The notes: generated by a model not told the origin, from the sequence alone. A stretch of DNA of 64,000 bases from Candidatus Latescibacterota bacterium (GCA_965221775.1 CBDCSU010000006.1:1888001-1952000), one strand, 5' to 3'; positions 37,256 through 53,719 are shown, counted from the stretch's first letter. Program-made: numbers and translations.

Positions 37256-37289
37256 GGGGAGGGTGAACCAGACGGCGCTGGCAGCGCCC

Positions 37290-37583
37290 CTAACTGCTCG
37301 GAACCTGCACCCCGGCTTGCTCTGGAAGAGCTTCGACAAGGAGCAAGGCGACGGCGCTGCCGGCATCGGGATGCGCGACAACCGCATCGGCGGAACTGGG
37401 CTCGGGGATCTCGTTGTCCGAGCAGGCCAGGCCTTCGAGATGGAGTGCCAGAGCTTCGGCCGCCATTTCTCTGGCCTCCTCAAGGGTGCGGCCGGCGGTG
37501 ACACACCCGGGCAAGTCAGGGAAGCTCACCCCGTAGTCGCTCTGTTGCTCCTTGTGAACCAAGCCGATGTAGGTTCGCTTCAC
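37290..37583 (-). CDS. hicB: HicB family antitoxin (short; no obvious C-terminal DNA-binding domain)
   Basis: YGVSFPDLPGCVTAGRTLEEA..AEAL..IPEPS. Confidence 0.88.
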   Translation of the reverse strand: MKRTYIGLVHKEQQSDYGVSFPDLPGCVTAGRTLEEAREMAAEALALHLEGLACSDNEIPEPSSADAVVAHPDAGSAVALLLVEALPEQAGVQVPSS

Positions 37584-37592
37584 GGTGGCCTC

Positions 37593-37781
37593 CTATCGTA
37601 GTCTGAGTCCAGATTGCCGTTCGATACTCCGCAGCGTACCGGCAGGGAGGTCGCGACGCGGATGCGGAACCGTCACCAGGCCCTCCTTCTGCGGGTGCTT
37701 CAAGTGGTAATGCGATCCACGAATACGGTCTGTCTGCCAACCGTCCTCGTGCAGTCGCCTCAAGACAGTCCGGCTGTCCAT
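37593..37781 (-). CDS. hicA: HicA family mRNA interferase toxin
   Basis: L..DGW..RGSH..KHP..VTVPHP..DL..GTL.SI.RQSG. Confidence 0.9.
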   Translation of the reverse strand: MDSRTVLRRLHEDGWQTDRIRGSHYHLKHPQKEGLVTVPHPRRDLPAGTLRSIERQSGLRLR

Positions 37782-37817
37782 CTCCGAATCAGTTGATGCT
37801 CCCTGTAGGATCTCATA

Positions 37818-37854
37818 TTGACGAGATTATACCGATATTGCACGATCATGGCAC
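37818..37854. promoter_or_regulatory. Overlapping divergent sigma-70 promoter candidates between hicA and the antitoxin-like gene
   Basis: Plus strand TTGACG-N17-CACGAT (37818-37846); minus strand TATAAT at 37826-37831. Confidence 0.45.
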
Positions 37855-37869
37855 TTCACGGAGTACTCC

Positions 37870-38139
37870 TTGGCGGATGCTGAAGAACTGACCCTGCGTG
37901 GCCTGGATCCCCAGCTTGTCGCCAAGTTGAGGGAGGCGGCTGGACGGGAGGACAAGAGCGTGAGCCAGATAGCCCTGGATGCCCTGCGAAGGCATTTCGG
38001 ACTGGACAGGTCCCGCTGGTTCACGGAAGTCCATCGAGACATGGATCATCTCTTCGGACGCTGGGACAAGGAGGAGTTCGTCCGGATTCAGCGGAAAATC
38101 GATTCCGGCCGGCGCGTCGATCCGGAACAGTGGCAGTGA
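37870..38139 (+). CDS. RHH/FitA-like antitoxin; cognate toxin apparently deleted
   Basis: LTLRGLD..L..A..E..SVSQ..L (ribbon-helix-helix); stop overlaps GTG of a 7-codon stub MNRFLMG*. Confidence 0.6.
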   Translation: MADAEELTLRGLDPQLVAKLREAAGREDKSVSQIALDALRRHFGLDRSRWFTEVHRDMDHLFGRWDKEEFVRIQRKIDSGRRVDPEQWQ

Positions 38140-38170
38140 ACCGGTTTCTGATGGGGTGAAGTCGCCCGTT

Positions 38171-38269
38171 CCAGTGGCCCTGGGCGTGGCCTGGATGGCG
38201 GGCTTCTACGGGCTCGCCGCTCTCGGCGTGGAGCCGGTGGCCACGTCTTTTTCCTTTTCGCCTGGGCCG
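38171..38269 (+). repeat. Degenerate ~100-bp copy of the 5' end of the membrane-protein gene at 39370 (other copy 39367-39472)
   Basis: Both copies encode [22 protein letters not shown]; this copy has synonymous changes and an indel. Confidence 0.85.
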
Positions 38270-38272
38270 CTC

Positions 38273-38743
38273 CTATGCTTCCAGGAAGTCAACCAGCAGT
38301 TCCTCGAAGTTCGTTCTGTTGAAGTCCCACCTGCGAGGCTTCTCGTACCTGGCCTCTCTCTTCGCGAACTCCCAGTGGTCCGTTCCCTTGAGAACCAGCA
38401 TCGCGAGAGAAGTGCTGCCGGAGACGAGGTCGACGCGGCCTCTGGCACCGAGAACGAAGCGACCAATTGGCCTCAAGGTGAGCACCTGGCTCCTCAAGAA
38501 GACAAGCTTGAGGGTCGGTGCCTGGTATTCCCCAAGTTGCTCCTCGTAGATCGGAATCGTCTCTCTTTCGACCTGCAGCAGGGCTTGATCCTCGAGCGGA
38601 CGCAGCCACTCGAGTATCGTCGAAGTGAGCCCATTGCAGCTCGAAATCCACTCTTGGCGAACGGCATCGTGGTCGATTTCCGATGCCTCCTGCTGCCGTT
38701 GCCTCTTCTTCAGAACTTCCTCCAGCGTGGGCACTTCAACCAC
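38273..38743 (-). CDS. Hypothetical protein (156 aa), lower GC
   Basis: Open ORF with AGAGGA RBS; motifs EE.LG.Y.AP and PIGR.V.GA.GRVD. Confidence 0.7.
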   Translation of the reverse strand: MVEVPTLEEVLKKRQRQQEASEIDHDAVRQEWISSCNGLTSTILEWLRPLEDQALLQVERETIPIYEEQLGEYQAPTLKLVFLRSQVLTLRPIGRFVLGARGRVDLVSGSTSLAMLVLKGTDHWEFAKREARYEKPRRWDFNRTNFEELLVDFLEA

Positions 38744-38864
38744 TCCTCTGCGCCGGGTTCACAGGACGCCGCCGGAGTTCATCGGCAAGGCTCTCCTGAC
38801 GTAAGACGCCGCATGCAGTCAAGCACCGGGAGCGTCCCGTGGTCACTCATCGTCTCCCGAAGCT

Positions 38865-39176
38865 TCATACAACCTCTTCCACCGTCGGCGCAGTCGCAGC
38901 CTGGTTCCGGCGGGCCTGCGCGAGTTCGTAGCTCGCCTGCATCCGCATCCAGTGCTCGGCGGTGCCCCAACCGATCTCTTCCAGCGCCAGCGCCATGTTC
39001 GCAGAGACCCCCGCCTTTCCGTTCAGCACGCGCGACAGGGTCCCGCGGTCGCAACCGAGGTGGACGGCCGTATCCGTGACGTTCCATCCGGTCTCTTCCA
39101 TGCTCTCACGGATCAGTTCGCCCAGATGCGGCGGGTTCAGCATGGGGCGTGCACGTCCGTCCCCGTCATTGTTCAT
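38865..39176 (-). CDS. higA: HigA family addiction-module antidote (XRE HTH)
   Basis: NPPHLGELI..LSRVLNGKAGVS.NMAL.L..AE.WMRMQASYEL. Confidence 0.88.
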   Translation of the reverse strand: MNNDGDGRARPMLNPPHLGELIRESMEETGWNVTDTAVHLGCDRGTLSRVLNGKAGVSANMALALEEIGWGTAEHWMRMQASYELAQARRNQAATAPTVEEVV

Positions 39177-40724: not shown

Positions 40725-41015
40725 ATGCCGATGAAGAACCCGCCCCATCCAGGGCTCTCGGTGCGGCACGATTGCCTGGAGCCTTTGGGGCTGAATGTCA
40801 CGGAAGCGGCCAGGCACCTGAGCGTCAGCCGCGAGGAGCTTTCCGACATCGTGAACTGCAACGCGGGCATCTCGCCTGAGATGGCAATCCGGCTCCACAA
40901 GGCCTTCGGGGGCGGCGCCGAGACGTGGCTGCGCCTCCAGGCTGCCTACGACTTGGCGCGAGCGATGAAGCATGCCGATGAGATCAAGGTCGAACGGCTG
41001 TCACCAGGAGCCTGA
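40725..41015 (+). CDS. higA: Orphan HigA family antitoxin
   Basis: [38 protein letters not shown]; GGAGG RBS; no adjacent toxin. Confidence 0.88.
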
Positions 41016-41157
41016 TACCGTGGGGCGTACAAGTGGAAGACCAAGCTGCGGTACAGCGGAAGGTCGCAGCATCCAAAATCGCCACACGCCCTTGCCCGAA
41101 GCGGCTCTCGGCATACCATGGGTCGCCCCATGTACACATGGCCTTGTGGAGTCTAAG

Positions 41158-41574
41158 CTAGGTTGGGCGCGAGAGGAATCGCTCCAGCCTTCGGGCTACT
41201 ATATCGGGCCTCCTCTCCACGTCGCACTCCCAAAGCCTCAGGACCCTCCATCCCTGACGCCGTAGTCGGCGGATGTTCCGCTGGTCCCGGCGCTTGTTGT
41301 TCGAGAGCTTCTGCTCCCAGTACTCTCGACGTGTGGATGGAATGCGACCCTCTCCGCAATGAGGACACAGGTGCCAGAAACAACCGTGCACGAAAATGAT
41401 GGCGTTGTACTTCCTGAGAACGACATCTGGCCGTCCTGGAAGCGCCATCACGTTCAGACGGTAGCGATAGCCCATCTTCGTGAGGAGGCGCCGGACAATG
41501 CGCTCAGGCTTAGTGTCCTTGCCCCGGATGCGGGACATGACTTCGCTTCGCTTCTTGCTGCTCCAGATGTCCAT
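41158..41574 (-). CDS. vsr: Very short patch repair endonuclease
   Basis: RSEVMSRIRGKDTKPE, LPGRPD, FVHGCFWH, W..K..N..RD, GWRVLRLWEC. Confidence 0.95.
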   Translation of the reverse strand: MDIWSSKKRSEVMSRIRGKDTKPERIVRRLLTKMGYRYRLNVMALPGRPDVVLRKYNAIIFVHGCFWHLCPHCGEGRIPSTRREYWEQKLSNNKRRDQRNIRRLRRQGWRVLRLWECDVERRPDIVARRLERFLSRPT

Positions 41575-41575
41575 G

Positions 41576-42697
41576 CTATGGATGTGTGGACTGCTTGAGT
41601 ACTGGTTGTAGGAACTCCATGACGCTCTTGGCGACTTGGAAGGCCAGTGGTACCGGAACGCCATTAGAGACCATTGCGAACTTAGCCCCAAGGGGATAAT
41701 GGGGCTGGAGGGCATATTCATCCGGGATGCCCTGGATGCGCATAGCCTCCCTGACGCTTAGTCGACGTTCCTTCCAAGGGTGCAAGTGCACTTCGTTGTG
41801 ACCATAGCAGGCCGTAGGGCTGAAGCGGTAGCGGTGAAGGCGCTTGAAGGACTTGCGTTTGGTGTCACCCTCACTTACGGTCTTGAATCGTTCGGAGTAG
41901 GTATTGAAGACATCGTCTCTATTCTGAGTTGGCATTAGACGGAAGGCACTGGCGACGGTAAGTTCATAGGGAATGTCGTTGGGACGCAAGGGCCTCTCGC
42001 CGAACGGTGATACCTGGGGCCAGTTGAATCCTGTCTTGGCACCCTTGAAGTCTGGGAGTTCCGGCCAAGGGAACCAGTCCCTATCCGTCCTATCGATCAT
42101 GCGGCTAGCGCACTGTTTCGCTATGTGCTCATGAACGCCAACCAGAATTAGCCGTTCCCGGTCTTGGGGAACGCCCATTTCGAGGGCATTAATCATGCGC
42201 AGATCTAGGCAATAGCCAGCGGCCTGGAGCTGCTGTTCGAGCTTCTTCAAGTAAGCACGATGCACTCCTATGCGATACAGTCCCGCCACGTTCTCGAACA
42301 CGAAGAAGCGAGGCATGAGTGAAGTGATGCGGTAAACGTAAGTCCTTGTCAGCTTGCCCTTGGTGCCCTTGCTGCCCTGGTGGCGTCCACCGTTACTGAA
42401 GTCAGGACAGGGTGGTCCGCCGATCACGCCGAATAGAGAGGGCTTGCCTTGCGGGAAGGCTTGTCTCTCTATAGACGGGGCGTAGAGCGATCTGATGTCC
42501 CGAGTATTCGAAATAGCCGCTGGGTATGGCTTCTTGCCATTGGCTTTGCGCCATAGGGTCATGCCGTAGGCGTACATGCTCGCGACCGAAGGATCACTTT
42601 CGTTTGTCCAGACGGTCTCGAAACCTGCCTTCTCGAAGCCGATGTCGAGGAATCCGCCGCCGGTGAAGAAGGACAGGAGTGGGATGGCGTTACTCAT
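41576..42697 (-). CDS. DNA (cytosine-5)-methyltransferase (DruM-like position)
   Basis: Motif I FTGGG, motif IV GGPPCPDFS, VI ENV, VIII PQDRER, IX-X RLSVRE..RIQG..NGVP. Confidence 0.93.
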   Translation of the reverse strand: MSNAIPLLSFFTGGGFLDIGFEKAGFETVWTNESDPSVASMYAYGMTLWRKANGKKPYPAAISNTRDIRSLYAPSIERQAFPQGKPSLFGVIGGPPCPDFSNGGRHQGSKGTKGKLTRTYVYRITSLMPRFFVFENVAGLYRIGVHRAYLKKLEQQLQAAGYCLDLRMINALEMGVPQDRERLILVGVHEHIAKQCASRMIDRTDRDWFPWPELPDFKGAKTGFNWPQVSPFGERPLRPNDIPYELTVASAFRLMPTQNRDDVFNTYSERFKTVSEGDTKRKSFKRLHRYRFSPTACYGHNEVHLHPWKERRLSVREAMRIQGIPDEYALQPHYPLGAKFAMVSNGVPVPLAFQVAKSVMEFLQPVLKQSTHP

Positions 42698-42718
42698 GAG
42701 GTCTCGATAGCGGGATTG

Positions 42719-43801
42719 TCATTCCTCCAAAGCGAATCCTGTGGTCAGGTCAGTTTGTCTATACGAAGTCTCCACTACGTCACGCCGGAGGTCGCAGAGC
42801 ATTGCCGCCGATACGTCCTGCATCAGGAACGGAAAGCGCGTCGGGGAAAGCCCTCTGACCGTGACTTGGCGGGCGCCAATGTTGAGTGCGAGGAGTAGTG
42901 TGCCGTTGCCGAGCAGGGTGACGCTATTCACCGTCCCAACGGCATCGGCTGGCCAGCCGGGACTCTGTTCGCGTTTGCTCCAATATCCCTTGCACACTGG
43001 CCTGTACCCACAGAAGCGGCAAGCGTCGGGGCTAGGGGTGGCGAGGCGTTGGGGCGGTGCGCCTGATGCTATGAGGTTGTTAATCGCCGTGAGTTTGGTG
43101 CGGGCCTGCTCCATGATATTGCGTGCCCGGGCGGTGTCGAGCGGCACCTGGTGATTGCCGCCGGCAAGGTTGGTCAGCGTCAGCCGAATCGGCCACTCGC
43201 CGCAGGTTTCATGGTAGATGGCGGCGTAGAGGAGAAGTTGAGCCTCATATGCTGGCTTGACGATCCCCGCCTCACGCTCTGTTATGGCCCCGGTCTTGTA
43301 ATCAAGGAGTTCCACCCCCAGCTTGCCGGGAACGATGCGGTCGACGAAACCGCCCAAGAGTCCATCGTCGCTCTCCAGCCAGACCTCCACCCCTGCGGAC
43401 CGGCCAGCAGACACTCTCGTAGCGCCGCGAGGAGTGGACTTCCTTTGGGTGATCCTCCGGGCTGATGCAAGGGTGAGACGCTTCCTGACCTCATATCCTT
43501 GCGCGCTCTCGCTGAGGGGGATGAAGCGCCCCTCTCCAGCTTGGCGCATCTGGTCTTCCACCTCGGCTACGGAACTCTCCCAGGCTTTGCTCAGGCGTTG
43601 GCTCTGGAGCGATCCACGGCCCGCAAGTTCGAGGACTCGGTGAGAAACAAGGCCGAGTCGGGCGGCCGGAGAGACAGGGAGGATCGGGGGGGTGGTGGTG
43701 GCATGCCAGACTTCCCGGAGCACGCACTGACTGAGTTGATGATACCTGCTAGGAGAAATCCGTCGTAGTGGGTGTAAGTTGGGAGGATCCGGTAGCAGCA
43801 T
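42719..43801 (-). CDS. PD-(D/E)XK nuclease (RecB/AddB/Cas4-like) with four Cys and an extra C-terminal domain
   Basis: ISPS..C, G..H, E..L..GFVDR, DYKTG, QL.LY, CRFCGYRPVC. Confidence 0.85.
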   Translation of the reverse strand: MLLPDPPNLHPLRRISPSRYHQLSQCVLREVWHATTTPPILPVSPAARLGLVSHRVLELAGRGSLQSQRLSKAWESSVAEVEDQMRQAGEGRFIPLSESAQGYEVRKRLTLASARRITQRKSTPRGATRVSAGRSAGVEVWLESDDGLLGGFVDRIVPGKLGVELLDYKTGAITEREAGIVKPAYEAQLLLYAAIYHETCGEWPIRLTLTNLAGGNHQVPLDTARARNIMEQARTKLTAINNLIASGAPPQRLATPSPDACRFCGYRPVCKGYWSKREQSPGWPADAVGTVNSVTLLGNGTLLLALNIGARQVTVRGLSPTRFPFLMQDVSAAMLCDLRRDVVETSYRQTDLTTGFALEE

Positions 43802-43813
43802 GGGGTCAGAGAC

Positions 43814-46800
43814 TCACTCAACAGCCTTGGCGAGTAGGGATCGACAATACGCCGGTCTCCTGAGAAGGTTGAACGTGTCGATGTACCGGAAGACGTCGCC
43901 TCCTGCAGCCACAATGGCGTCGGCGAGTAGACCAGCGGGTCTCCGGGTGTCCCAGAGAGGGTGCACAACCAAAATGCGCCTCTGCCCGACCGTGAATCCA
44001 GGAACGTCAGCCCAGGTCTCCGGTTTGTAGTCGTTGAAGTGTGCGACAAGGCTGTCCCTGAGAATACCGGCACTGTCTGGCCATCCATGGAGTTCCGGGG
44101 CCTCGAAATCCCCGTCAAGGCCGACGCGGTAGTTTGGACACTGAAGGGTCTTGAGGTACGAGAGAGCTAGGCGCCAGTCGAGGAGACCGTGGTAGGTCAT
44201 GTTGCGATAGACCTTGAGGCAGTCGTAGCAGGCAGAATCGCAGGCGGCCCGATGTGCTGGCAAGAGGATCTTCTCTGCGTAGGAACCCCGGGCCGGACTG
44301 TGGATTGCGTGGAGGACTTCTGCAAGGCTCTCGTAGGCCTCCCGAACAAAGCCGGCGCCGTTGGGCAGGCGGTCACTGAGGATGATGTCGGCGACGGTCG
44401 TAGACTCATCTAGATTGTGTGAGGTGACACTGCCTACCTCGATCTCCTCAGGGTCGATGTCAAACCTGTCGGCCAACACGCGCTGGAGGAGGAAAGCAGC
44501 GGAGTATATTGCGGCCCTCAGTCCACTGTGGGCGGCAGCAGGGTCAAGGGTGATTCCTTTGGAAACGGCGGCCGGAGCGATGCGCAACACCTCGGTTGTC
44601 TTGGCGGCCGCGAGGGCGATCTTGTCCCGGCCGTCGCTGCCATACCGGGCGTCGATCCATTGATGTCCAAGCGGTGGAATGCCTCTACTCCTGCCACTGT
44701 CGGATGGCGGCGGGGGTGTCGTGACCACAGCGCCCCGGAAGAACTGTCCTGCATTGTCGTTTATTCTCCAGACTGTGCCCTGGGCGGAGAGGGCCCTGTT
44801 ACAGTTAGTGTCGGCGAGTTTGGTCCGGCCTGGTTCCTCAGTGGCCTCTACCATCGTGGCAGGGATGCTGAACATGAGGCTGTCGTCCTCTTTCGCATCA
44901 CTTCCCATGGTGAGGTTAGTCCGAAAGGCTTGCGGGACGACGATCTCGAATTGCCGATAGGACCCGTCTTCGTCGGCTGGGTGGCCACAGTGCGGGCAGT
45001 GCTCTCGCGGCTCCTGGTGAACCGTGGTCTTCATGTGTCCGCAGGCTCTGCACCATTGCACCCAGCGTCTGAAAGGAAGCGGCTCCTCGGAAAAGGGCAC
45101 CCACTTGGGGCCCTGCTGGTAAAGAGGTGGCGTGAATCCTATGGCGGTGTGAACTGCCTTATCCTTTGTCTTCTGAGCCCCGGGGGCGAACTCGGTGATG
45201 GCGAGCTCAAGGTCTCGATCGATGGTGCGCTCCCCGTCCTTGGTCAGGCGGTGGTAGAGAAGCCGGGTCCTGGAAGGCATGCCGAACATTGGGAGTATTG
45301 CGGCCTCCGCGAGGCGCTCAGCCAAACCCTCACCGACGAGCTCCGGATTGCTGTGAGTATCCTGTATCTGTTTGGGCAGAGTGTGCTCAAGCCACTGCAA
45401 GTCCTCCTCACTTGAATCGTGGAGGAGAGCTCGGATGACCGCGTCCTGTGCTTCCTTCTCACTCACAAGCCAAGTCTCTACGGAGTTGCGGTTCTCGGGC
45501 CAGCCGACCTTGGCGTCAGGATCGATGGCAAGCCCAAATTCTCCGTGAGTGTCGGGTGGCCGGGGGCTGTGCCACCATCTCACTCCGGCCGCCTTGAATG
45601 CACGGCGGAGGCACTCCTTGGCAAGAAGGCGTCTGGCTATCTGGGGTTGGGTCATCGTGAGGAAGGGAACCGGAGGGGGATCACCAATGATGCGTTCGGG
45701 TACTGAAAAGTAGTGCTCGTCGTGGCTGCGACCCCTACAGAGGGTGAGCACAAGTGCAAAGGCTTGGCCGCGTCGTCCCGCGCGACCTACCCTCTGCTGG
45801 TAATTGAACCTCATGGGCGGCATATTAGCGAGCAGGACGGACTGTAGGTGTCCAATATCGACCCCGACTTCCATCGTTGTTGTCACGCTAAGTGCATCAA
45901 TCTCGTCGACCTGTGGAAGGCGTGGCTTCCCGGGTAGGTCTACGATGATTCCGCGAAAGTGCTGCTGCCTCTCTATTTGGTTGTCGGTTTGCGCTGTCAG
46001 TTCCTCACAGTGAAGTCTGATTGGCGGCCGATGTTCTGCTGCGGCCTTGGCTAGGTGGTTCTCAGCCCATAGCTCACGACAGGTCCTCTGCGCAGTTTGG
46101 GGGAGCTTGGCATGGCATGCGGTGCAAATCCCACACGAGTGGTGGAGGTGGTATCGGGCACAGCGGGGACACTCCCAGACGGGGTCGTCTCCTTCCGTCA
46201 CCCGTACACTAAGCTCACGGGCTACGAGCACCCCATTGTGATGGCCACCCTGGCGCAAGGCGGCGAAGATAGCGTCTCCAAGGGTTGCTTCGTGCAATCC
46301 CCTATCCTTGGCGACCTGCCGGACGTAGCGCTTTATGCGCGCCTGACAGTCGACGTAGTCTGGGTAGGAGTCTTGGGGATATTCTGAGCCTTCATGCCGA
46401 AATCTGTCCCCGAGAATCCGGACGAAGGCATCGCAGGCCTCAACAAACTCCTGGGGTCTCAGTCCAGACGCTGCGCTGAGTTCCGAGAGTGCTACGGGAT
46501 CGGTGCGCAGCTTCATCCATCCGAGTCCTGACGCTTCAAGCCCGAAGTAGAGGCGACCAAAGAAGAGGTCGCAGAGCGTGACAGTAAGGGCGTGCAGGAT
46601 CCTCTCTCTAGCGTGATGCGCTCCTTGGGGCAAGCCCTGCCGCCAGGTGCGGACTTCAAAGTCAAAGAGGGTTGTCCAGTGGTGGTACTTTTCCCCCCAA
46701 AGGAAGTCCTGAAGGAGAAGGTCATTGCCTGCGGGGTTTACTCCATGTTCGACAAGTCTCCGGATAAGGATACCGCAATCCTGTAGATCGTCTGGTGGCG

Positions 46801-49501
46801 GCAAGACCACAGAAATGGGCACGATGCGGTCACGTCCGCTGGTTTTGGCGCGTGCAATCTGTGTGGTTGCCCTGTCAATCTCGTGGAGTATCGGCGGGGG
46901 CATACCTTCTCTGGGGAGTCCGGCCGTCCGGATGAGATTGCGGTACCGCTCAAGGTCGCCCGGGTGTCTGTCGATGTACTCCTTTGCGGCGGGTGGGAGG
47001 GGGAGGTCTTGCTCGAGGTGGTCGATTAGGGCAGGGACTCCGATGATGGCAGAGTGCAATTCATCGCATACGATCTCGCGGACGAGTTCGTGGTAGTGAT
47101 TGCGTTCCACGCCGTTGGAGATCTGCGCAGCATCCTCGCGGCTGTCGGAGAAGACGACCAACTTTCGCCTTGCTTCATCGCTTGCTTCTAGCTGATAGAA
47201 TAGTTCCTTGGTAAAGATCTGGCTGACTTTTGAGAAGCCCGTTCTAAAACCACGGACTGGAGACTTCCTGTTATCGCGCCGGCTATAGTCGGTGCTGCAC
47301 GCAGGGCATACGCAAGGGAGTGCCCTGTACTCTTCGTCAGTTCCGTCGGCATCTATCTGGAAGAGGTAGCCTTGTGCCCACTGCTGCGGGTGTCTCTGTG
47401 CATCCTCGTGTGTGGGCCTGACAGCGCCTGTGTAGGCGTTCATGCTGGCCTCCAGCCACCGGGCCGAGGGGGCTTTGCTCTGTTGGGCGTCTCCAAAGCG
47501 GGCCTGGCGCCAGCGTGGAGGCTTGTCATAGTCCTGAGTCCCTTGGGGCCAGAAAACGCCGAACTCCCGGTACGACCTTCGTTCAACAAACCTCGCGGGT
47601 TGTCTCTCCGGAATCCCTTCGATGTCCGGACTGGTGGCGAGAAACTCTAGTGCCCCTGGTGTGTGCAGCTTCTCCCCCCCGAAGAATACGGTCCCGCAGT
47701 GTTCACAGTACAGCAGTTGAAGAATGCGATATCCCTCCTTGGAGAGGATTCTGGTATGGGAATGGAGTTCCCCGACGGGCCTGCCGTCTCGAACTGAGGC
47801 CGAGGGCCTTATTGACGCCCAGAGGCCCTCAATGTTGCGGAAGAAATAGTGGATCCTAAAGGAGGGTATAGTCCGCTTCCGGTGATACCGCTCCATGAGA
47901 GAGCTGGCGATTAGCACGCCCCGGAGTGCGCGGCGAGCTGATAACAGGGGGTGGCCGGGAAAGAGGCGGGTAGCCAAGTCAGGGAGTGAGAGAGCCGTGA
48001 GTGCCCCATCTTTCATGGAGGCATGGAGGAGGTTCAAACTGGGATTGAGAGAGTCGACCGCACTGAAGAAGCCCTCAACTGAGGCCTCAGAGGACAACAT
48101 TCTTGCAGCCTCACTAATGGTAGCGTCAGTCACCTCGGGTGCGTTGGCGAGATGCTCGAAAGGAGCCAGTGGGAGAGTTGCCACCGGCATGGGGGAAGGC
48201 TTCAACTCGCCCTCGATAATGTCCACGGCCTTAGATCCAAAGAAGCCCTCCAAGAACTTCTGGCTCTCGGGATGGTGAGCCTGGAGGGATGCGCTGGAGG
48301 CTAGAATGCGTAGCTGGGGATGGTCGGGATAGAGGCCAAGCCGGAGAAGGAGAAGGCGAAGGAGGTAAGCCACTTCTGCCCCGGCTGTTCCCCTGTACAA
48401 GTGGAGTTCGTCCACAATGAGGTGGAATGTGCGCATACTCCTGGCCTGCTCTCGCTTGCCTTCAGGCAGGTCTTCAGCAGCGAGCCATGCTCGTGTCTTC
48501 TCGAAGATGGGCTCATCCGCCTCGCGCATCATCATGATGCTCAGCATAGAGAAGTTGGTGATGAGGATGTCTGGGGGGTGGTCTTGCATGTCCCATCTAC
48601 TTCTCATTTCGGCACCATGGAGACTTGGGAAGAAGTGGAGGACTTCCGACTCCTTGGGCTTCCTACAGACGTGCTGCCGAGCCGCTTCTGCGGCCACTTC
48701 CGCCTCTTGAAGCCGCTGGCAAAGCGCACGGAGCTTGTCGGTGTTGGGACTCCCTGTCTCGCGGTGTTCGTGGCCAGGTACCGGCGTGGAACTGTTATAC
48801 CTGCCCAAGTAGATGCGGTTCCCTGGGGATTGCACTCGAAACCAAGCGCGGGCTTGGTCTGAGTCGAGAGCTTTCCTCAGACGGGTAAGTTGGTCCTCGA
48901 CCAGCGCATTCATGGGATAGAGGATGAGAGCCCGGACAGCAGGGGTGCGCCTCTCATGCCCTCTCTGTGGAACACGGAAGGATCTGCGGAGCCTATTGCC
49001 GGTCTTACAGCGGTCCTGCCAGTCCAGACTCTTCCACCAATCACTGGTGTGGTCGTGCGGTTTGCTGGCCGAGGGCCATGTCGGAAGTTCCTTGACAAAG
49101 TGGGCAAAGAGAGGTAGCAGAAAGGCCTCGGTCTTTCCTGAGCCAGTGCCTGCGGTGACCACGCAGTGTCTTCCGGAGAGGGAGCGGGATAGCATGGTCG
49201 TCTGGTGGCGATGAAGCTCGTAATCACCCATAAGGCCACACTCTACGAGCGACTTGAAGAGGTGCCGCTGGTGATTGTCGAGGCCAGGGAGATCCTGGGC
49301 CTCAAGAGTTTGGATGGTCTTGCCATCAGTTTGGTACGAGGGAAGGGGCTCAAGCCAAGGTTCGTGGGTCAGCACACCAGGTGACCGAAGGAGTTGGTCG
49401 CGTTCCGCCTCGAGGCTTGGGAAGCGTGTTCCGAATGCGGTCTTTATGTACAAAATGAAGTTATCGCGGATCTTCTCGAAGGCAGCGATGGGGTCAATCA
49501 T
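43814..49501 (-). CDS. Large SF2 DEAD/DEAH helicase with C-terminal DUF1998 (DruE-like)
   Basis: TAGTGSGKTE, LYPMNALVEDQ, VDELH, VFSDSREDAA, TTTMEVGVDIG, QRVGRAGRR, several CxxC, D..PNGAG, CDSACYDCL..Y.N..H..LDW. Confidence 0.9.
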   Translation of the reverse strand: MIDPIAAFEKIRDNFILYIKTAFGTRFPSLEAERDQLLRSPGVLTHEPWLEPLPSYQTDGKTIQTLEAQDLPGLDNHQRHLFKSLVECGLMGDYELHRHQTTMLSRSLSGRHCVVTAGTGSGKTEAFLLPLFAHFVKELPTWPSASKPHDHTSDWWKSLDWQDRCKTGNRLRRSFRVPQRGHERRTPAVRALILYPMNALVEDQLTRLRKALDSDQARAWFRVQSPGNRIYLGRYNSSTPVPGHEHRETGSPNTDKLRALCQRLQEAEVAAEAARQHVCRKPKESEVLHFFPSLHGAEMRSRWDMQDHPPDILITNFSMLSIMMMREADEPIFEKTRAWLAAEDLPEGKREQARSMRTFHLIVDELHLYRGTAGAEVAYLLRLLLLRLGLYPDHPQLRILASSASLQAHHPESQKFLEGFFGSKAVDIIEGELKPSPMPVATLPLAPFEHLANAPEVTDATISEAARMLSSEASVEGFFSAVDSLNPSLNLLHASMKDGALTALSLPDLATRLFPGHPLLSARRALRGVLIASSLMERYHRKRTIPSFRIHYFFRNIEGLWASIRPSASVRDGRPVGELHSHTRILSKEGYRILQLLYCEHCGTVFFGGEKLHTPGALEFLATSPDIEGIPERQPARFVERRSYREFGVFWPQGTQDYDKPPRWRQARFGDAQQSKAPSARWLEASMNAYTGAVRPTHEDAQRHPQQWAQGYLFQIDADGTDEEYRALPCVCPACSTDYSRRDNRKSPVRGFRTGFSKVSQIFTKELFYQLEASDEARRKLVVFSDSREDAAQISNGVERNHYHELVREIVCDELHSAIIGVPALIDHLEQDLPLPPAAKEYIDRHPGDLERYRNLIRTAGLPREGMPPPILHEIDRATTQIARAKTSGRDRIVPISVVLPPPDDLQDCGILIRRLVEHGVNPAGNDLLLQDFLWGEKYHHWTTLFDFEVRTWRQGLPQGAHHARERILHALTVTLCDLFFGRLYFGLEASGLGWMKLRTDPVALSELSAASGLRPQEFVEACDAFVRILGDRFRHEGSEYPQDSYPDYVDCQARIKRYVRQVAKDRGLHEATLGDAIFAALRQGGHHNGVLVARELSVRVTEGDDPVWECPRCARYHLHHSCGICTACHAKLPQTAQRTCRELWAENHLAKAAAEHRPPIRLHCEELTAQTDNQIERQQHFRGIIVDLPGKPRLPQVDEIDALSVTTTMEVGVDIGHLQSVLLANMPPMRFNYQQRVGRAGRRGQAFALVLTLCRGRSHDEHYFSVPERIIGDPPPVPFLTMTQPQIARRLLAKECLRRAFKAAGVRWWHSPRPPDTHGEFGLAIDPDAKVGWPENRNSVETWLVSEKEAQDAVIRALLHDSSEEDLQWLEHTLPKQIQDTHSNPELVGEGLAERLAEAAILPMFGMPSRTRLLYHRLTKDGERTIDRDLELAITEFAPGAQKTKDKAVHTAIGFTPPLYQQGPKWVPFSEEPLPFRRWVQWCRACGHMKTTVHQEPREHCPHCGHPADEDGSYRQFEIVVPQAFRTNLTMGSDAKEDDSLMFSIPATMVEATEEPGRTKLADTNCNRALSAQGTVWRINDNAGQFFRGAVVTTPPPPSDSGRSRGIPPLGHQWIDARYGSDGRDKIALAAAKTTEVLRIAPAAVSKGITLDPAAAHSGLRAAIYSAAFLLQRVLADRFDIDPEEIEVGSVTSHNLDESTTVADIILSDRLPNGAGFVREAYESLAEVLHAIHSPARGSYAEKILLPAHRAACDSACYDCLKVYRNMTYHGLLDWRLALSYLKTLQCPNYRVGLDGDFEAPELHGWPDSAGILRDSLVAHFNDYKPETWADVPGFTVGQRRILVVHPLWDTRRPAGLLADAIVAAGGDVFRYIDTFNLLRRPAYCRSLLAKAVE

Positions 49502-50102
49502 GCGCTCTCCTCACTGTTCACGACCTCGTGCAGATGGACAGGTGCCACTCTTTGGTGGAGCTTGGCAGCGATCATCTCTGAAATCACGGAAGGAACATCC
49601 CGGTAGAGGGTGATCGGGTGCCCTGCGGGTATCGATGCGACCGAGGCTTGTGTTCTTGCAAGAGCGGGAGGCATGCCAGTTGAGAGGGCTGCTGCCCGGG
49701 CAAGAAGGACTGGGAGTGGGGTGGTAGCAGGCACGGCAAGGGTTCGCAATTGGGCGTCGTACAGGAGCACTGTCCGCTCTTGCTCTGCAAGGAGGAGATA
49801 TCGTCCCCAGTCGCGATTGACCTCCGTTGCGGCGGTGTCTTTCCAGAGCCAATGCCGACGTTGCTTGGTGATAGGATTGCGGTACTCTGTGAGCCGGAGG
49901 GAAGGATCAGTGTGTGCCGTTGCTCCGATGAACTTGAGTAGGCCCCCATGGAAGACCCGGAGCGGCCAATTGGGCTCCTGCCGCGGCTCGAAGGAAAGGG
50001 TGCTGGTCACTTGAGGGAGGGTTAGGGAGAGGTGGGCGAGCTTCCAGCCAGCGGGGTGGTCGAGCTCGCATTGAAGCGCGGCTGTCTGCCCGATGGTCGC
50101 TA

Positions 50103-51258
50103 GTGCTCTGTTAAAGAGTGGGCATTGAGTTTTGGACCTTCACCAGCTCCGCATCCGCCTTGTTCCGACATCGCCAGGCGAGGTACTCCTGCATGCGTTG
50201 GCCCACGTCCCGATGGTCCTCCGGGTCGCTGTTCTTGATGACGAAGTAGTGGGCGGCCGTCAGATGGCATTCGAGCCGATTCATCCAGGAGGCGTTGGTG
50301 GCGGTGAAGACGAGGTCGACCTGATGGCGCTGACACCACTGCCGGATCGGTTCGGTCGTGTGCGTCGACAGATTGTCGAGGACGAGGTAGATCCGTCGGG
50401 CCTTGGCGTAACGGCGCCGGATAGCCTTGAGGAAGGTGAGCACCTCCGAGGCGTGCTTCTTGCGCTTGTGATGCATCCACAACTCGTCCTCGTGGACGTT
50501 GTAGGCGCCGAAGAAGTAGCTGACCCCGGCGTGCCGATGGTAGGTGGCCCGATGGCGCACCGGGCGCTTCTGCGGCGCCCACGAGGAGCCGGCATGGGGC
50601 TTGATCTGCACCGGCCCCATCTCGTCGAAGCAGACTACGACCGAGTCCTTCGGCGCCCGCCGGTAGAGTCGGTCGATTCGTTTTTTTTAGCGGCGAAGTC
50701 CGGATCCTTCGACTCCTTCCAGGTACGAGTCCGCTGGTAGGTGACCTTATGCCGGTCCAGGACCTTGGCGATGGTCACGTGCGAGACCTTGGGGATCATC
50801 TGCCGCCCCACCAGATGGTCCGTCAGCTTGCGCAGCGACCACTGGTTGAAGGGTTGGCCGAAGGCCCGAGGGGGCATGGTGGCGATCTCCACCACCACGG
50901 ACTCGTCTTCCGGGGTCAACGCCGGGGGGCGCCCCGGATGGGCTCGCGTGCGAAGCGACGCCAACCCTTCCTCGTTGTATTGGCGCAGCAGTTGGCGCAC
51001 GTACTCCTCGTGCAGGTGCAGCGTCGTCGACAGCTCCTGCACGCGCATCCCCTGAGCGCTGAGGGAGATCAACTGTCCTCGCCGCATCTGCACCGCATTG
51101 CGAGGCCGCTTCAGCCACCGGCTCAGTTCCTTGGATTCCGCGGCGTTCGGGGCTCGAGCATGGAGACACATGGCGGACCCTCCCAGGCAAAATGGCCATA
51201 GGTCCCTATGATACAACGACTTACGGAAAAGTACAAGTCTGAATCCTTAACGGAGCAC
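50103..51258 (-). mobile_element. IS630-family insertion sequence, 1156 bp, TA target duplication (50101-50102 and 51259-51260)
   Basis: Terminal inverted repeats GTGCTC(T/C)GTTAA(A/G)GA; CTAG context at both ends; two-ORF DDE transposase. Confidence 0.93.
50111..51170 (-). CDS. IS630 transposase (HTH orfA + DDE orfB joined by a -1 slip at an A8 run, 50681-50688)
   Basis: orfA: GRPP, WSLRKL, TWKESKDPDF; shifted frame KKRIDRLY..CFDE..VLDN..NRLE. Confidence 0.88.
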
Positions 51259-51664
51259 TAGCGTGCCCTTGTCCACTGCCTCAACGGCAATGCGAGGAGG
51301 CAAGTCGATGCCTGCAATACTCTGAGGATCCTGGTTGAGGCGAGCTAGGGGGCCGACTTGGAGCACTGCCCTTTGAAGGCTCTTTGACGTTTCCGGCACT
51401 CGTGCACCCGTTAACAGGGCCCGCGGTGTGCCTACTCCAGGAAGTAGGACCAGAGTGGGAGGACACATGTGCACCAAGGCACGAGGATAGTCGAATTCGC
51501 AGAAGCCAAGGGCTTCGAAGCACCGCATTACTTGTTGACGCAAATCAATGGTACCCCAGCGGTGGGTGTGTAAGTGAAGTGAGGCTGAACTGCAGACCAT
51601 TCTCAGGATGTTGTTGAACCGCTCGAGGCGGACAGAGGGTGCAGTGCTTATTGCGGAGAGCAGC

Positions 51665-53719
51665 TCAGCGGACACTCTTGGCCACCTCTACATATTCATA
51701 CCATCTGGTACGGAGTTCTCTGAGCTGCGGGGGTGACGTGCGCTTGCGAGCGTGCCAGAGAGCGGTTCTCCACTGCCTGACCAAGGCCTTGTCCTTGTCC
51801 TGCTTAGGCCTTGTCTGCCTGTAGGGGCGCCGCGCCTGCTCGGGGGAGCCGCAGAATACGGCTTTGAGTTGTTTGCGGCCGTCCTTGACAATCGCCCATA
51901 CGGGCATCCACGCGGGCAAGTGATCGTCTGGCCAAACGGCGATCTCGCCGGGGACTGGCCCGATTAGCGTGACGTGTGCAGAAAGATGTAATGGAAGATC
52001 CTGGGGGTACTCGGGGGGACCAGCACCTTGTGGAAAGTGGACGACAGCGCCGTTGGCGTACGGGAGGCAATCCGGGGTTGGCGTACCGGCGGAGTCACGG
52101 CGAAAGGGAGTATAATCGTGTCGTAGGGGGAGATGTGGGCTTTCCAGCCTGATGACTCTGCGAAGAGTCTGATGTTCTGTGCGAGCTTCTATACGTAGGG
52201 GCATCCCTTCCGGCAGGTCATCCTGTATCCGCCAGGTGTGGCTGAGCTCCTCGTCGTGTGCGAGTTCTTGTTTGTCTATGGTGACCGTTTCGTCCCCTAA
52301 CGCGTTCTCAAGGACTATGTGGGGAGGAGCGGTCTTGAGGTACACGTTTCCGCGTCCTGTCTTGATACCGCCCCTTAGGAGTAGCCTGACAGTGGTAGAT
52401 ACTGTGAGAACGTCTACCTCTGGGCATGAGTGGCGAGCGTTCTCGCCCTGATAGAGTGACCAACCGGGAGGTAGACCGTGGGAGGTACTATGTCGCCTGA
52501 AATTGTCGGAGTAGTCCTGTCCCCACTGAGAGACCCTGTCTATGTCCGCGCCTCTGGTCGCGATCAGGAACGGGGTGTTCCGCTGGAGGCGCTGCGTCTC
52601 AACATAGTCTGGAAGGCCGTCGTACTCACCAGGCATGAAGAGTTTGGTTGTAGCTGGGCGTAGCGTAGCAATCCACCCGTTTTCCTCGTCTTGCAGTTGT
52701 TCGCCATTTAGCCAATCGAGGACCGCGCCGTCAAGTTCGTGTGAAGTGACGGATTCGTAGAGCTTCTTAGACCACCCGCCAAGGAGATCTTCGCATGTCC
52801 ACTGGGATTCATCTGGGCTGCGGACGAAGCCGCACCCGTCTGCGGGGAAGGAGGCAGGTGTCCGGATCCGCACCCGGCAGGTAACGCGCTGAGCTAGAGG
52901 ATCATGCTGCAAGCAAAGACGGAGTGCGGCGGTCTTCCTTCGACGCTGAGACCCTGCATCGTCTTCTACGATAGTTCCATCCCAAGCCTCAAGCTCTTCA
53001 AGGACCACCTCAGAGAGAGCATCACGGAGGACATTGCTCTCGGGGTCCCTGGCATCAAGGAGTCGCAGGGTACGTCGATGGAGAAGAGCTCCTCCGTCCT
53101 CTCGCAGGAGACGGAGTATGACTTCCTGGGAAGGGAGATCTAGAGGATCCAGTTTGCGCTCGCTGAGCAAGAGTGGGAGGCGCTTGCGCTCATCTTCTGA
53201 GATGAGGGTTTGGGAGAGGGGCAGGCCGATTCGCCACCACTGTCCGCGGAAGCGGGCGACGAAGCGTCCCAAAGTCTCGTGGTTCTCCTCTCTACTCCAG
53301 TGTTCAAGATCGTCCCAGAGATCGATCATTCGATCGAAAGAGGACGGGGCGCGGGTGTCTCCAGGATGTCCAAGGAGATCGTTTAGCCGGGGGTAGTATG
53401 CGTGAGGGGCATAGTCGCCCTCTATGCCTCCCGCAAGCACGTAAAGGCCGAGATAAGCGATGTATGGAGGGTAGGAAAGGTCTCGATCTCTCCACCCTTC
53501 GAAGGCCTCTAACGCCCTTTGACAGATGCCTGACCGTGTCGTCCAGGGAGGGCCGGCCTTCACTGCGTCGACGAATTCGGCCAACCCGGCGCCGAAGGGT
53601 CCACCTAGTTCCTCGATTAAGGGCTCGTTCACATAGAGCAGGACTTCCTTGGCAGCCTTCTCTTCGGTGAAGAAATGGCTAGCGAGTAGGTCGTTCCATT
53701 GGAGGTAACTGAGCGGCAC
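51665..53719 (-). CDS. 684-aa protein of unknown function, first gene of the defence operon (DruH- or DruF-like)
   Basis: GGAGG RBS; SYLQWND..HFF, PPYIAYL, AYY.RL, LW.DL..W, P.SQ; lower GC; heads an overlapping operon with the DUF1998 helicase. Confidence 0.7.
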   Translation of the reverse strand: MPLSYLQWNDLLASHFFTEEKAAKEVLLYVNEPLIEELGGPFGAGLAEFVDAVKAGPPWTTRSGICQRALEAFEGWRDRDLSYPPYIAYLGLYVLAGGIEGDYAPHAYYPRLNDLLGHPGDTRAPSSFDRMIDLWDDLEHWSREENHETLGRFVARFRGQWWRIGLPLSQTLISEDERKRLPLLLSERKLDPLDLPSQEVILRLLREDGGALLHRRTLRLLDARDPESNVLRDALSEVVLEELEAWDGTIVEDDAGSQRRRKTAALRLCLQHDPLAQRVTCRVRIRTPASFPADGCGFVRSPDESQWTCEDLLGGWSKKLYESVTSHELDGAVLDWLNGEQLQDEENGWIATLRPATTKLFMPGEYDGLPDYVETQRLQRNTPFLIATRGADIDRVSQWGQDYSDNFRRHSTSHGLPPGWSLYQGENARHSCPEVDVLTVSTTVRLLLRGGIKTGRGNVYLKTAPPHIVLENALGDETVTIDKQELAHDEELSHTWRIQDDLPEGMPLRIEARTEHQTLRRVIRLESPHLPLRHDYTPFRRDSAGTPTPDCLPYANGAVVHFPQGAGPPEYPQDLPLHLSAHVTLIGPVPGEIAVWPDDHLPAWMPVWAIVKDGRKQLKAVFCGSPEQARRPYRQTRPKQDKDKALVRQWRTALWHARKRTSPPQLRELRTRWYEYVEVAKSVR

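Follow-up and report, generated by a model that had tools for sequence, protein, structure and literature searches.

Type IV Druantia consists of DruE, DruF and DruL; in the available text of the report that describes it, the type lacks DruM and DruG and is found in 11 phyla (PADLOC; Payne et al. 2021, PMC8565338). In the available part of an earlier survey, Cas4-like pfam12705 nucleases adjoin YprA-like COG1205/DUF1998 helicases that have extra metal-binding inserts, in neighborhoods of bacteria and mesophilic archaea for which a defense role was predicted (Hudaiberdiev et al. 2017, PMC5704561). Type III is recognized by a DruH partner plus a DruE3-type helicase having a C-terminal PLD nuclease. 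Type II, as Doron et al. reportedly laid it out in 2018, is DruM-DruF-DruG-DruE. Here we analyze an operon in a 64,000-nucleotide (nt) stretch of the genome of a Candidatus Latescibacterota bacterium (GCA_965221775.1, CBDCSU010000006.1:1888001-1952000), called the window below, in which positions are counted from the first letter. By gene content and model matches the operon is a Druantia type IV system, a known kind of system, that carries three optional genes: druK, a druM-type methylase gene and vsr. In our favored reading, which we consider probable, it is an acquired type IV operon in which a helicase would be coupled to a nuclease, 5-methylcytosine (5mC) would mark self DNA and Vsr would act in repair, the defense function having been lost in this genome.

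The operon comprises six co-oriented minus-strand genes between 53719 and 41158, as given by open reading frame (ORF) listing and translation. The first, druF (51665..53719), encodes a core protein of Druantia types II and IV of 684 amino acids (aa) and is followed by druL, which is in two parts, codons 1-139 at 51259..51675 and codons 140-339 plus the stop codon at 49498..50100. Between the parts lies a 1156-bp insertion sequence (IS) of the IS630 family at 50103..51258, which runs on the minus strand in the direction of the operon. The 1895-aa product of druE (43814..49501) is a YprA-family DEAH helicase with an MZB/DUF1998 domain, that of druK (42719..43801, 360 aa) is a Cas4/AddB-like four-Cys PD-(D/E)XK nuclease and that of the druM-like gene (41576..42697, 373 aa) is a C5 cytosine DNA methyltransferase. 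The last gene, vsr (41158..41574), encodes a T:G mismatch endonuclease of 138 aa when read from the Met at 41574. The junctions calculated from the coordinates, 5' to 3' along the operon, are an 11-nt overlap, a 4-nt overlap and gaps of 12, 21 and 1 nt. GC content is 0.56-0.62 over 41000-53500 versus 0.67-0.74 in both flanks. The first-pass annotation had described six co-oriented genes that overlap or lie 1-21 nt apart, richer in A/T than their surroundings, and both descriptions agree with these values. A promoter/terminator scan gave one promoter-like and ten terminator-like sites, not above the yield from shuffled sequence.

The gene models used were those of PADLOC-DB v2.0, and all seven ORF pieces of the operon match Druantia or Vsr models. 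DruF matches DruF4 (PDLC00054, E 3.5e-200) over residues 3-683 of 684 and also matches DruF2 (632 bits), the two scores being 5% apart. Both parts of druL match DruL4 (PDLC00056), the 5' piece over profile positions 1-135 of 330 (E 5.6e-26) and the 3' piece over positions 168-326 of 330 (E 2.2e-46). The helicase matches DruE2 (PDLC00015, 1833.6 bits) and DruE4 (PDLC00051, 1804.9 bits) over the full length of each, a difference of <2%, whereas DruE1 gave 547.7 bits, DruE3 at most 299.7 bits in fragments and DISARM DrmA 33.6 bits. The YprA structure (PDB 6znp) matches DruE only at E 5e-6 over ~70 residues. The first-pass annotation had taken the locus for a Druantia operon, and these scores bear it out, the helicase grouping with DruE. 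DruK matches its namesake model (PDLC00060, 'PD-(D/E)XK nuclease superfamily') at E 1e-26, and the methylase matches DruM2 (PDLC00030) over its full length (E 1.1e-124, 414.5 bits versus 361 bits for the generic type II methylase model that scored highest). Two assignments were tried and rejected. Type III Druantia was set aside, neither the operon nor the seven flanking ORFs having a DruH match and the DruE3 match being fragmentary; DISARM was set aside with a DrmA match confined to ~70 residues and neither DrmB nor DrmC found.

Relatives were collected by a scan with DruE of one genome per species, which gave 323 pattern matches of which 304 were relatives. The best 80 of the 304 were analyzed; their DruE proteins are 38-71% identical to that of the window and come from many phyla, and three of the loci are archaeal (L008, L010 and L060). 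Within the 80 loci every ORF of 50 aa or more was searched with the window proteins in three phmmer/hmmsearch rounds (E <= 1e-5), and genes were counted by fixed distance rules. A co-oriented DruF-DruL-DruE core was found in 73 of the 80 loci, the other seven being mostly contig ends or broken ORFs. DruK lies directly 3' of DruE in 33 of the 76 evaluable loci (in 26 the ORF has 300 aa or more). A C5 methyltransferase is present somewhere in the locus, taken with 10-kb flanks, in 50/80 and absent within 10 kb in 30/80; in 42 loci it is within 1.2 kb of the core and in 8 more it lies farther out. Vsr is found in 19 loci, and in 16 of these no more than 700 nt separate it from the methylase. DruK and a methylase are both missing from 24 loci, most of them cyanobacterial. 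The exact order DruF-DruL-DruE-DruK-methylase-Vsr is seen in 6/80 loci. Five of these (L001, L004, L037, L053 and L055) are from Omnitrophota, Thermodesulfobacteriota, Planctomycetota (two) and Nitrospirota and the sixth is L069; all six fall within the DruE clade of the window. Synteny of nuclease, methylase and Vsr with the helicase in other genomes, on which the first-pass annotation had made its reading depend, is borne out.

Set beside type IV, the locus has the same DruF, DruL, DruE order and orientation with full-length model matches, in common with the relatives that share the core, and the same patchy distribution over many phyla as in PMC8565338. It differs in that type IV as given in the available text of that paper lacks DruM, whereas this locus and 42/80 relatives have an adjacent C5 methyltransferase; DruK and Vsr are further additions here, and druL is split by the IS. 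As a criterion of type IV, the absence of DruM seems drawn too narrowly and does not exclude the locus. Type II is resembled in the DruM2-type methylase, in the DruF2 match and in DruE2 being the best DruE score, and self-marking by 5mC is presumed in both. The differences from type II are that DruL stands in place of DruG, the methylase gene is at the 3' end of the operon rather than first, and DruK and Vsr are added. No DruG model match was obtained among the seven operon ORF pieces (E <= 0.01) or seven flanking ORFs (E <= 0.001).

A FastTree phylogeny of 72 DruE rows (eight loci with a DruE ORF of <1700 aa were left out, as was L066; support values are local SH-like) pairs the window with L053, a Nitrospirota metagenome-assembled genome, with support of 100. 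L053 is the best partner of the window for every gene (DruE 71%, DruF 65%, DruK 61%, DruM 77% and Vsr 78% identity). The pair lies inside a 14-row DruE clade (support 100) in which, anywhere in the locus, a methylase is present in 13/14 rows, DruK in 11/14 and Vsr in 12/14. The DruE sub-lineage of the window therefore nearly always carries the DruK-methylase-Vsr module. A 26-row cyanobacterial clade has DruK in 0/26 rows and a methylase in 7/26. The identities of the other proteins were correlated with DruE identity, giving Spearman rho values of 0.85 for DruF (67 loci), 0.73 for DruK (23 loci), 0.59 for Vsr (19 loci) and 0.33 for the methylase (45 loci). By this co-variation DruK has been inherited with the helicase, and the methylase has been exchanged more often.

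The window DruE has Pfam DEAD, Helicase_C and MZB domains. Walker A (G118-T124), the DEAH box (D364-H367) and motif VI (Q1235-R1243) are conserved in at least 95% of the 72 rows, as are five Cys pairs. No Asp or Glu is conserved at that level in the last 115 residues. The C-terminal domain of type I/II DruE is predicted to be an inactivated Vsr-like nuclease in the available text of a recent study (Bell et al. 2025, PMC12458937), and the lack of conserved acidic residues fits a dead nuclease domain in the window protein also. Since that domain looks inactivated, DruK is the sole recognizable active nuclease of the operon besides Vsr. Among structures, PDB 9wae_A ('Helicase', 1970 residues) matches the window DruE at E 2.1e-232, and the type III-like chain 9tu7_Y is far more distant (E 2.1e-28). 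The 9wae_A chain may be the first structure of a type I/II/IV DruE; its sister entries are 9waf, 9wds, 9wdu, 9wdv, 9wdw and 9wdy, and a literature search found no papers citing PDB 9WAE, 9WAF or 9WDS.

DruK has the Cas4/AddB pattern by its sequence motifs: a PD-(D/E)XK site (D154, D167-x-K169), a QxxxY motif (Q188-x3-Y192) and a C...CxxCx5C cluster. In 26 homologs C26, H54, E139, D154, D167, K169, Q188 and Y192 are invariant and C261, C264 and C270 are present in at least 90%, which upholds the four cysteines pointed out in the first-pass annotation. An Fe-S cluster is inferred to be bound by these residues. Pfam PDDEXK_1 (pfam12705) scores 72.5 bits against a cut-off of 22, and there are weak matches to Cas4 and to the AddA nuclease region. 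DruK as a CRISPR Cas4 proper was rejected (TIGR00372 gave 25 bits against a cut-off of 65, and there are no cas genes in the operon or the tested flanks). Residues ~283-360 form a conserved C-terminal domain that is private to DruK. A sequence search of the PDB with DruK gave nothing at E <= 1, and a single-protein DruK query of metagenome contigs gave 73 pattern matches and 0 relatives. Like the neighborhoods of PMC5704561, as far as its available text describes them, the locus places a four-Cys nuclease beside a large DUF1998 helicase; it differs in its DruF/DruL context, which that text, older than the Druantia names, does not give.

The DruE-DruK pair was examined by complex prediction using DruE residues 1290-1895 (72-row alignment) and DruK (26-row alignment). 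The C-terminus of DruE was chosen because druK adjoins the 3' end of druE, where relatives have fused nuclease domains. The complex scored 0.77 in each of three runs, whereas the best of three controls scored 0.00; the score mark is one reached by 58/80 solved complexes and 2/110 mismatched pairs, counts that are rough for custom alignments. Contacts agree between the three runs to at least 90%, with a partner pLDDT of at least 83. In full-length numbering the predicted DruE interface is 1487-1514, 1553-1555, 1694-1700 and 1853-1869, the first segment being the Zn ribbon C1484/C1487/C1502/C1505. The DruK interface (101-112, 172, 212-213 and 295-351) falls largely within the private C-terminal domain and takes in G300 and R316, both near-invariant. 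Recall of a solved complex by the predictor is unlikely because the PDB holds no protein related to DruK in sequence. The prediction supports docking of DruK on the DruE C-terminus and, together with the DruK-DruE co-variation, it backs the helicase-nuclease coupling put forward in the first-pass annotation.

In the mechanism that we favor, DruM would label host DNA as self with 5mC, on the pattern of type II Druantia and of restriction-modification. DruF, DruL and DruE would engage unmodified invading DNA, which DruE would unwind using ATP. DruK, held by its private C-terminal domain on the Zn ribbon and on the inactive nuclease-like C-terminus of DruE, would degrade a displaced strand, like the AddAB nuclease. 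The role of Vsr would be limited to repair of T:G mismatches that arise by 5mC deamination at DruM sites. AddAB/RecBCD serves as a working analogy, with a 3'-to-5' SF-type motor coupled to an Fe-S PD-(D/E)XK subunit, although in DruE-DruK the coupling is only predicted and the motors are not homologous (DruE is an SF2 helicase of the YprA family, those of AddAB/RecBCD are SF1 helicases of the UvrD family). We know of no Chi-type regulation of a DruE-DruK system.

The order of the two activities could be reversed. DruK would then act upstream of DruE as an end-processing nuclease that makes 3' overhangs for DruE loading, so that nuclease feeds helicase. Cas4-family enzymes are 5'-to-3' single-stranded DNA (ssDNA) exonucleases. 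Type III DruE is described in the available text of two 2026 preprints as a dimeric DNA helicase with 3'-to-5' polarity, activated by ssDNA or by 3' overhangs, including those on double-stranded DNA, and as engaging exposed ssDNA. The predicted DruE-DruK contact fits either order of action. However, 43/76 evaluable relatives are without DruK, so loading cannot generally need it, and we regard a nuclease-first order as unlikely, although a serious contender.

Assignment of the methylase does not depend on DruM2 alone: Pfam DNA_methylase (PF00145) gave 151.5 bits against a cut-off of 22 and NCBIfam dcm (TIGR00675) gave 133.9 bits against a cut-off of 100.65. The translation contains GGPPCPDFS and FENV, which we take to be the catalytic PC and ENV motifs of C5 methylases. 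Vsr passes the NCBIfam cut-off (TIGR00632, 136 bits versus 97.85, covering 1-118 of the 138 residues) and also matches Pfam Vsr (101.2 bits) and PADLOC Vsr (E 7.8e-32). As listed, the Vsr ORF is 41721..41158, which overlaps the methylase gene by 146 nt. The Met at 41574 is the most probable true start, because the Pfam/NCBIfam Vsr match begins there (ORF residue 50) and because the L053 ortholog begins 8 nt after its methylase gene; from this Met the protein aligns to the NCBIfam Vsr model from position 1. In the available text of PMC5704561, Vsr repairs T:G mismatches that result from 5mC deamination, and vsr often adjoins dcm in a pair that recurs in defense contexts. The window pair resembles E. 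coli Dcm-Vsr in that vsr begins 1 nt after the methylase stop codon, and differs from it in being embedded in a defense operon.

Another difference from the Dcm-Vsr pair is that in 16 related loci an EndoIII/Mig-like HhH-GPD glycosylase is found instead of Vsr. In 10 of these loci the glycosylase gene lies between the C5 methylase gene and druF, and in 6 (L024, L033, L035, L041, L050 and L051, found by phmmer only) it is in the same ORF as the methylase. Four stand-alone genes were checked with Pfam (L021:6187-6963, L034:6205-6936, L039:6178-6855 and L074:6206-6946), and two of the four products also match the EndoIII Fe-S motif. The glycosylase appears to be a second way, unrelated to Vsr, of repairing 5mC deamination. 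Two Microcoleus loci have a HicB-like antitoxin gene on the opposite strand between methylase and druF (L020:6456-6680, Pfam 31.7 bits; L029:6463-6687, near-identical by eye).

The methylase and Vsr could instead be an independent module, either solitary or orphaned from a restriction system, that travels as a passenger and has no role in telling self from non-self. This explanation draws on the exclusion of DruM from type IV in the available text of PMC8565338, on the weak methylase-DruE correlation (rho 0.33) and on the occurrence of Dcm-Vsr pairs in many defense contexts in that of PMC5704561. Position and strand also vary: of the 42 nearby methylase genes, 15 lie downstream and 15 upstream in the orientation of the core, the remaining ones being on the opposite strand, and 30/80 loci have none within 10 kb. 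Several observations argue for a tie to the core. In the window the genes are on one strand with gaps of 21 and 1 nt, the DruM2 model beats the generic type II methylase models (414.5 versus 361 bits), methylases within 1.2 kb of the core greatly outnumber those farther out in the 10-kb flanks (42 versus 8) and the methylase is kept in 13/14 rows of the clade of the window. A passenger module therefore seems to us an improbable account.

The first-pass annotation had called the locus an undescribed subtype, and a third possibility is that it does deserve a type of its own. The layout combines a type II feature (DruM) with a type IV feature (DruL) and is clade-specific, and no main-text description of DruK or of the DruK-methylase-Vsr tail was found in the literature searched. 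'DruK' has 0 occurrences in the main text of PMC8565338, the literature search found no paper naming both 'Druantia' and 'Cas4', and the phrase 'Druantia type IV' is scarcely used in the literature searched. Novelty did not hold up, however. Every gene, including DruK and the split DruL, matches an existing PADLOC-DB v2.0 model, an outcome that the first-pass annotation had itself named as refuting its proposal; DruF plus DruL plus DruE was named type IV in 2021 (PMC8565338, in its available text); and the available text of PMC5704561 had in 2017 already printed the pairing of Cas4-like nucleases with YprA-DUF1998 helicases and reported the Vsr-Dcm-type pairing as common. The core is moreover inseparable from the type IV and type II models (the DruE2/DruE4 and DruF4/DruF2 scores given above). 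We think a separate type distinctly improbable, and what stands of the proposal is a tail that has PADLOC-DB models and no main-text description found in the literature searched. A DNA repair operon of the MrfA/YprA kind would account for the MrfA Zn-binding domain of DruE (Pfam MZB, 30.9 bits) and for the repair-type enzymes Vsr and a RecB-like nuclease, but it is scarcely credible given 1834 bits for DruE models against the short YprA match and a low-GC island absent from 9/9 congeneric genomes and found in many phyla including archaea.

DruF and DruL have little to say about function. Neither protein matched a Pfam or NCBIfam family, and a PDB sequence search gave nothing at E <= 1 for DruF and chance-level rows only for DruL. 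AlphaFold2 (AF2) models were made of DruF from a 64-row alignment (pLDDT 86.4, pTM 0.70) and of the intact L053 DruL from a 61-row alignment (pLDDT 93.3, pTM 0.91). Foldseek comparison of the whole models with the PDB gave nothing at E <= 0.001. VIA-align found a winged-helix-like domain in DruL 1-72 (Z 7.1, rmsd 2.2, 61 aligned) and an Ig-like sandwich in DruF 441-528 (Z 8.3, rmsd 2.7, 86 aligned), both graded middling by the tool. No enzyme fold was recognized in the unsplit models by Foldseek and VIA-align, and comparison with McrB/McrC-like folds (AAA+ GTPase or PD-(D/E)xK McrC), prompted by the CoCoNuT link in PMC12458937, returned only the generic winged-helix and Ig-like matches. DruF and DruL are a single ORF at L019:6934-9960 and L024:6879-9992, and the C-terminal piece of the window DruL matches the C-terminus of long DruF2 models (1011-1030 positions; PADLOC, E 6.7e-06). 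By these two sequence comparisons DruL is homologous to the tail of the long type II DruF proteins.

Several points weigh against the reading that we favor. The complex score is a model confidence, not a measurement, and was obtained with the C-terminal third of DruE. We looked for an insert in DruE that would serve specifically for docking of DruK and rejected the idea: comparison of DruK-bearing with DruK-free loci gave no specific insertion and one group-specific residue. With no informative fold match for DruF or DruL, their roles are guesses. The description of type IV as lacking DruM in the available text of PMC8565338 and the loose tracking of DruE by the methylase, which is found upstream, downstream or on the opposite strand, count here as well. 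The 24/80 loci without DruK and methylase imply that the core works, or worked, alone, in which case another means of self-recognition and another effector would be needed. Finally, a literature search found no experiments on type IV Druantia, and for this reason the defense role is drawn from family membership. A more specific proposal for the sub-lineage is a restriction-modification-like machine in which DruK would be clamped on the Zn ribbon and dead nuclease domain of DruE, 5mC made by DruM would protect the host and T:G repair would have been recruited at least twice independently (as Vsr and as HhH-GPD proteins, free or fused). This proposal we hold tentatively, and think it somewhat more apt to fail than to stand.

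The break in druL is precise. The gene is split between codons 139 and 140 by the 1156-bp element plus one TA, and removal of both restores 139 + 200 codons, in agreement with the 339-aa second gene reconstructed in the first-pass annotation. The pieces are read as ORFs 51675..51247 (142 aa) and 50010..49498 (170 aa), the 5' ORF running three codons into the IS to a stop at 51247. The 5' part is 52% identical to the first 139 residues of L053 DruL, and the 3' part aligns with residues ~140-333 of that protein. The TA target duplication is at 51260-51259 and 50102-50101, flanking the IS, the terminal inverted repeats of which are ~15 nt; the 20-nt arms 50098-50117 and 51244-51263 (90% complementary) are the best inverted-repeat pair of the region. 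Pfam finds HTH_32 (59.6 bits) and DDE_3 (55.3 bits) in the IS ORFs. The transposase is spread over two frames, and the frame changes at a run of eight A residues that may be a programmed frameshift site. By its DDE_3 transposase with an N-terminal HTH, short repeats, TA duplication and several copies, the element is assigned to the IS630 family; the assignment leans on these features and on what we take to be the traits of that family. Four copies are present in the genome, three 100% identical over 1-1156 and one 97% identical, which indicates recent activity; besides that at window 50103-51258, they are at G000:C5:1481056-1482211, C5:1313228-1314383 and C6:152319-153474.

Four sequencing runs were compared as assembled contigs, and none of the four contained a contig bridging an IS-free druL. 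Run X1 contigs break at 50099/50100 and 51261, run X5 has near-identical druE/druL/druF pieces at depth 2-5, and run X6 and RNA run X19 have IS relatives only. Relatives of the IS that are 90-99% alike were seen in metagenome runs from sponges and marine sources and in a single metatranscriptome. Because the IS interrupts druL, the defense function is expected to be inactive here and has most likely been lost in this genome, a probable consequence that the first-pass annotation left out of account. All genes except druL are full length relative to L053. As the IS is co-oriented with the operon, read-through might still allow druE, druK, druM and vsr to be transcribed.

Judged by its low GC content and by the absence of DruK from sister genomes (the DruK model found no match in 9/9 other genomes of the genus), the operon is horizontally acquired. 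A DruK match of the full-length type was found in 2 of 168 genomes of the phylum, that of the window and G037, which is of the same class; four other matches to the model in the phylum are ~1000-aa AddB-like proteins. G037 has a decayed copy of the operon tail (L087; G037:C2:3344000-3363900) in which DruE matches only from residue 408, with a frame break, and the methylase-Vsr gap is 1.2 kb. Identities to the window are 49% for DruK, 65% for DruM and 73% for Vsr, and no DruF or DruL was found within 7.5 kb upstream. Given this decay and the IS in the window, both copies in the phylum are damaged. In the surroundings of the operon no tRNA gene was found in 30000-64000, and no defense models matched the seven flanking ORFs in PADLOC apart from an AddA-like gene with generic matches of the UvrD type. 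A further patch of low GC content (0.60-0.65) is at 37000-39100, ~2 kb beyond vsr, and between it and the operon comes a high-GC stretch that contains a weak DUF4332 ORF; the patch has a plus-strand ORF of 366 aa (37979-39079) without a Pfam or PADLOC match.

As a system the operon adds little, in that its core, nuclease and methylase are already modeled in PADLOC-DB. It is an example of the decay of a defense system by IS insertion. No mechanism for Druantia types I, II or IV was found in the literature searched, and DruK co-variation together with the predicted Zn-ribbon binding offers a testable model of the effector used by a DruE without a live nuclease domain; the 9wae_A structure could help in checking the predicted docking site. 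The statement that type IV lacks DruM fails among the 80 closest relatives, 42 of which have an adjacent C5 methyltransferase. Methylase-bearing loci almost always also encode an enzyme for T:G repair, which has either of two unrelated folds, and recurrent recruitment of such repair, if true, would reflect a consistent mutagenic cost of 5mC.

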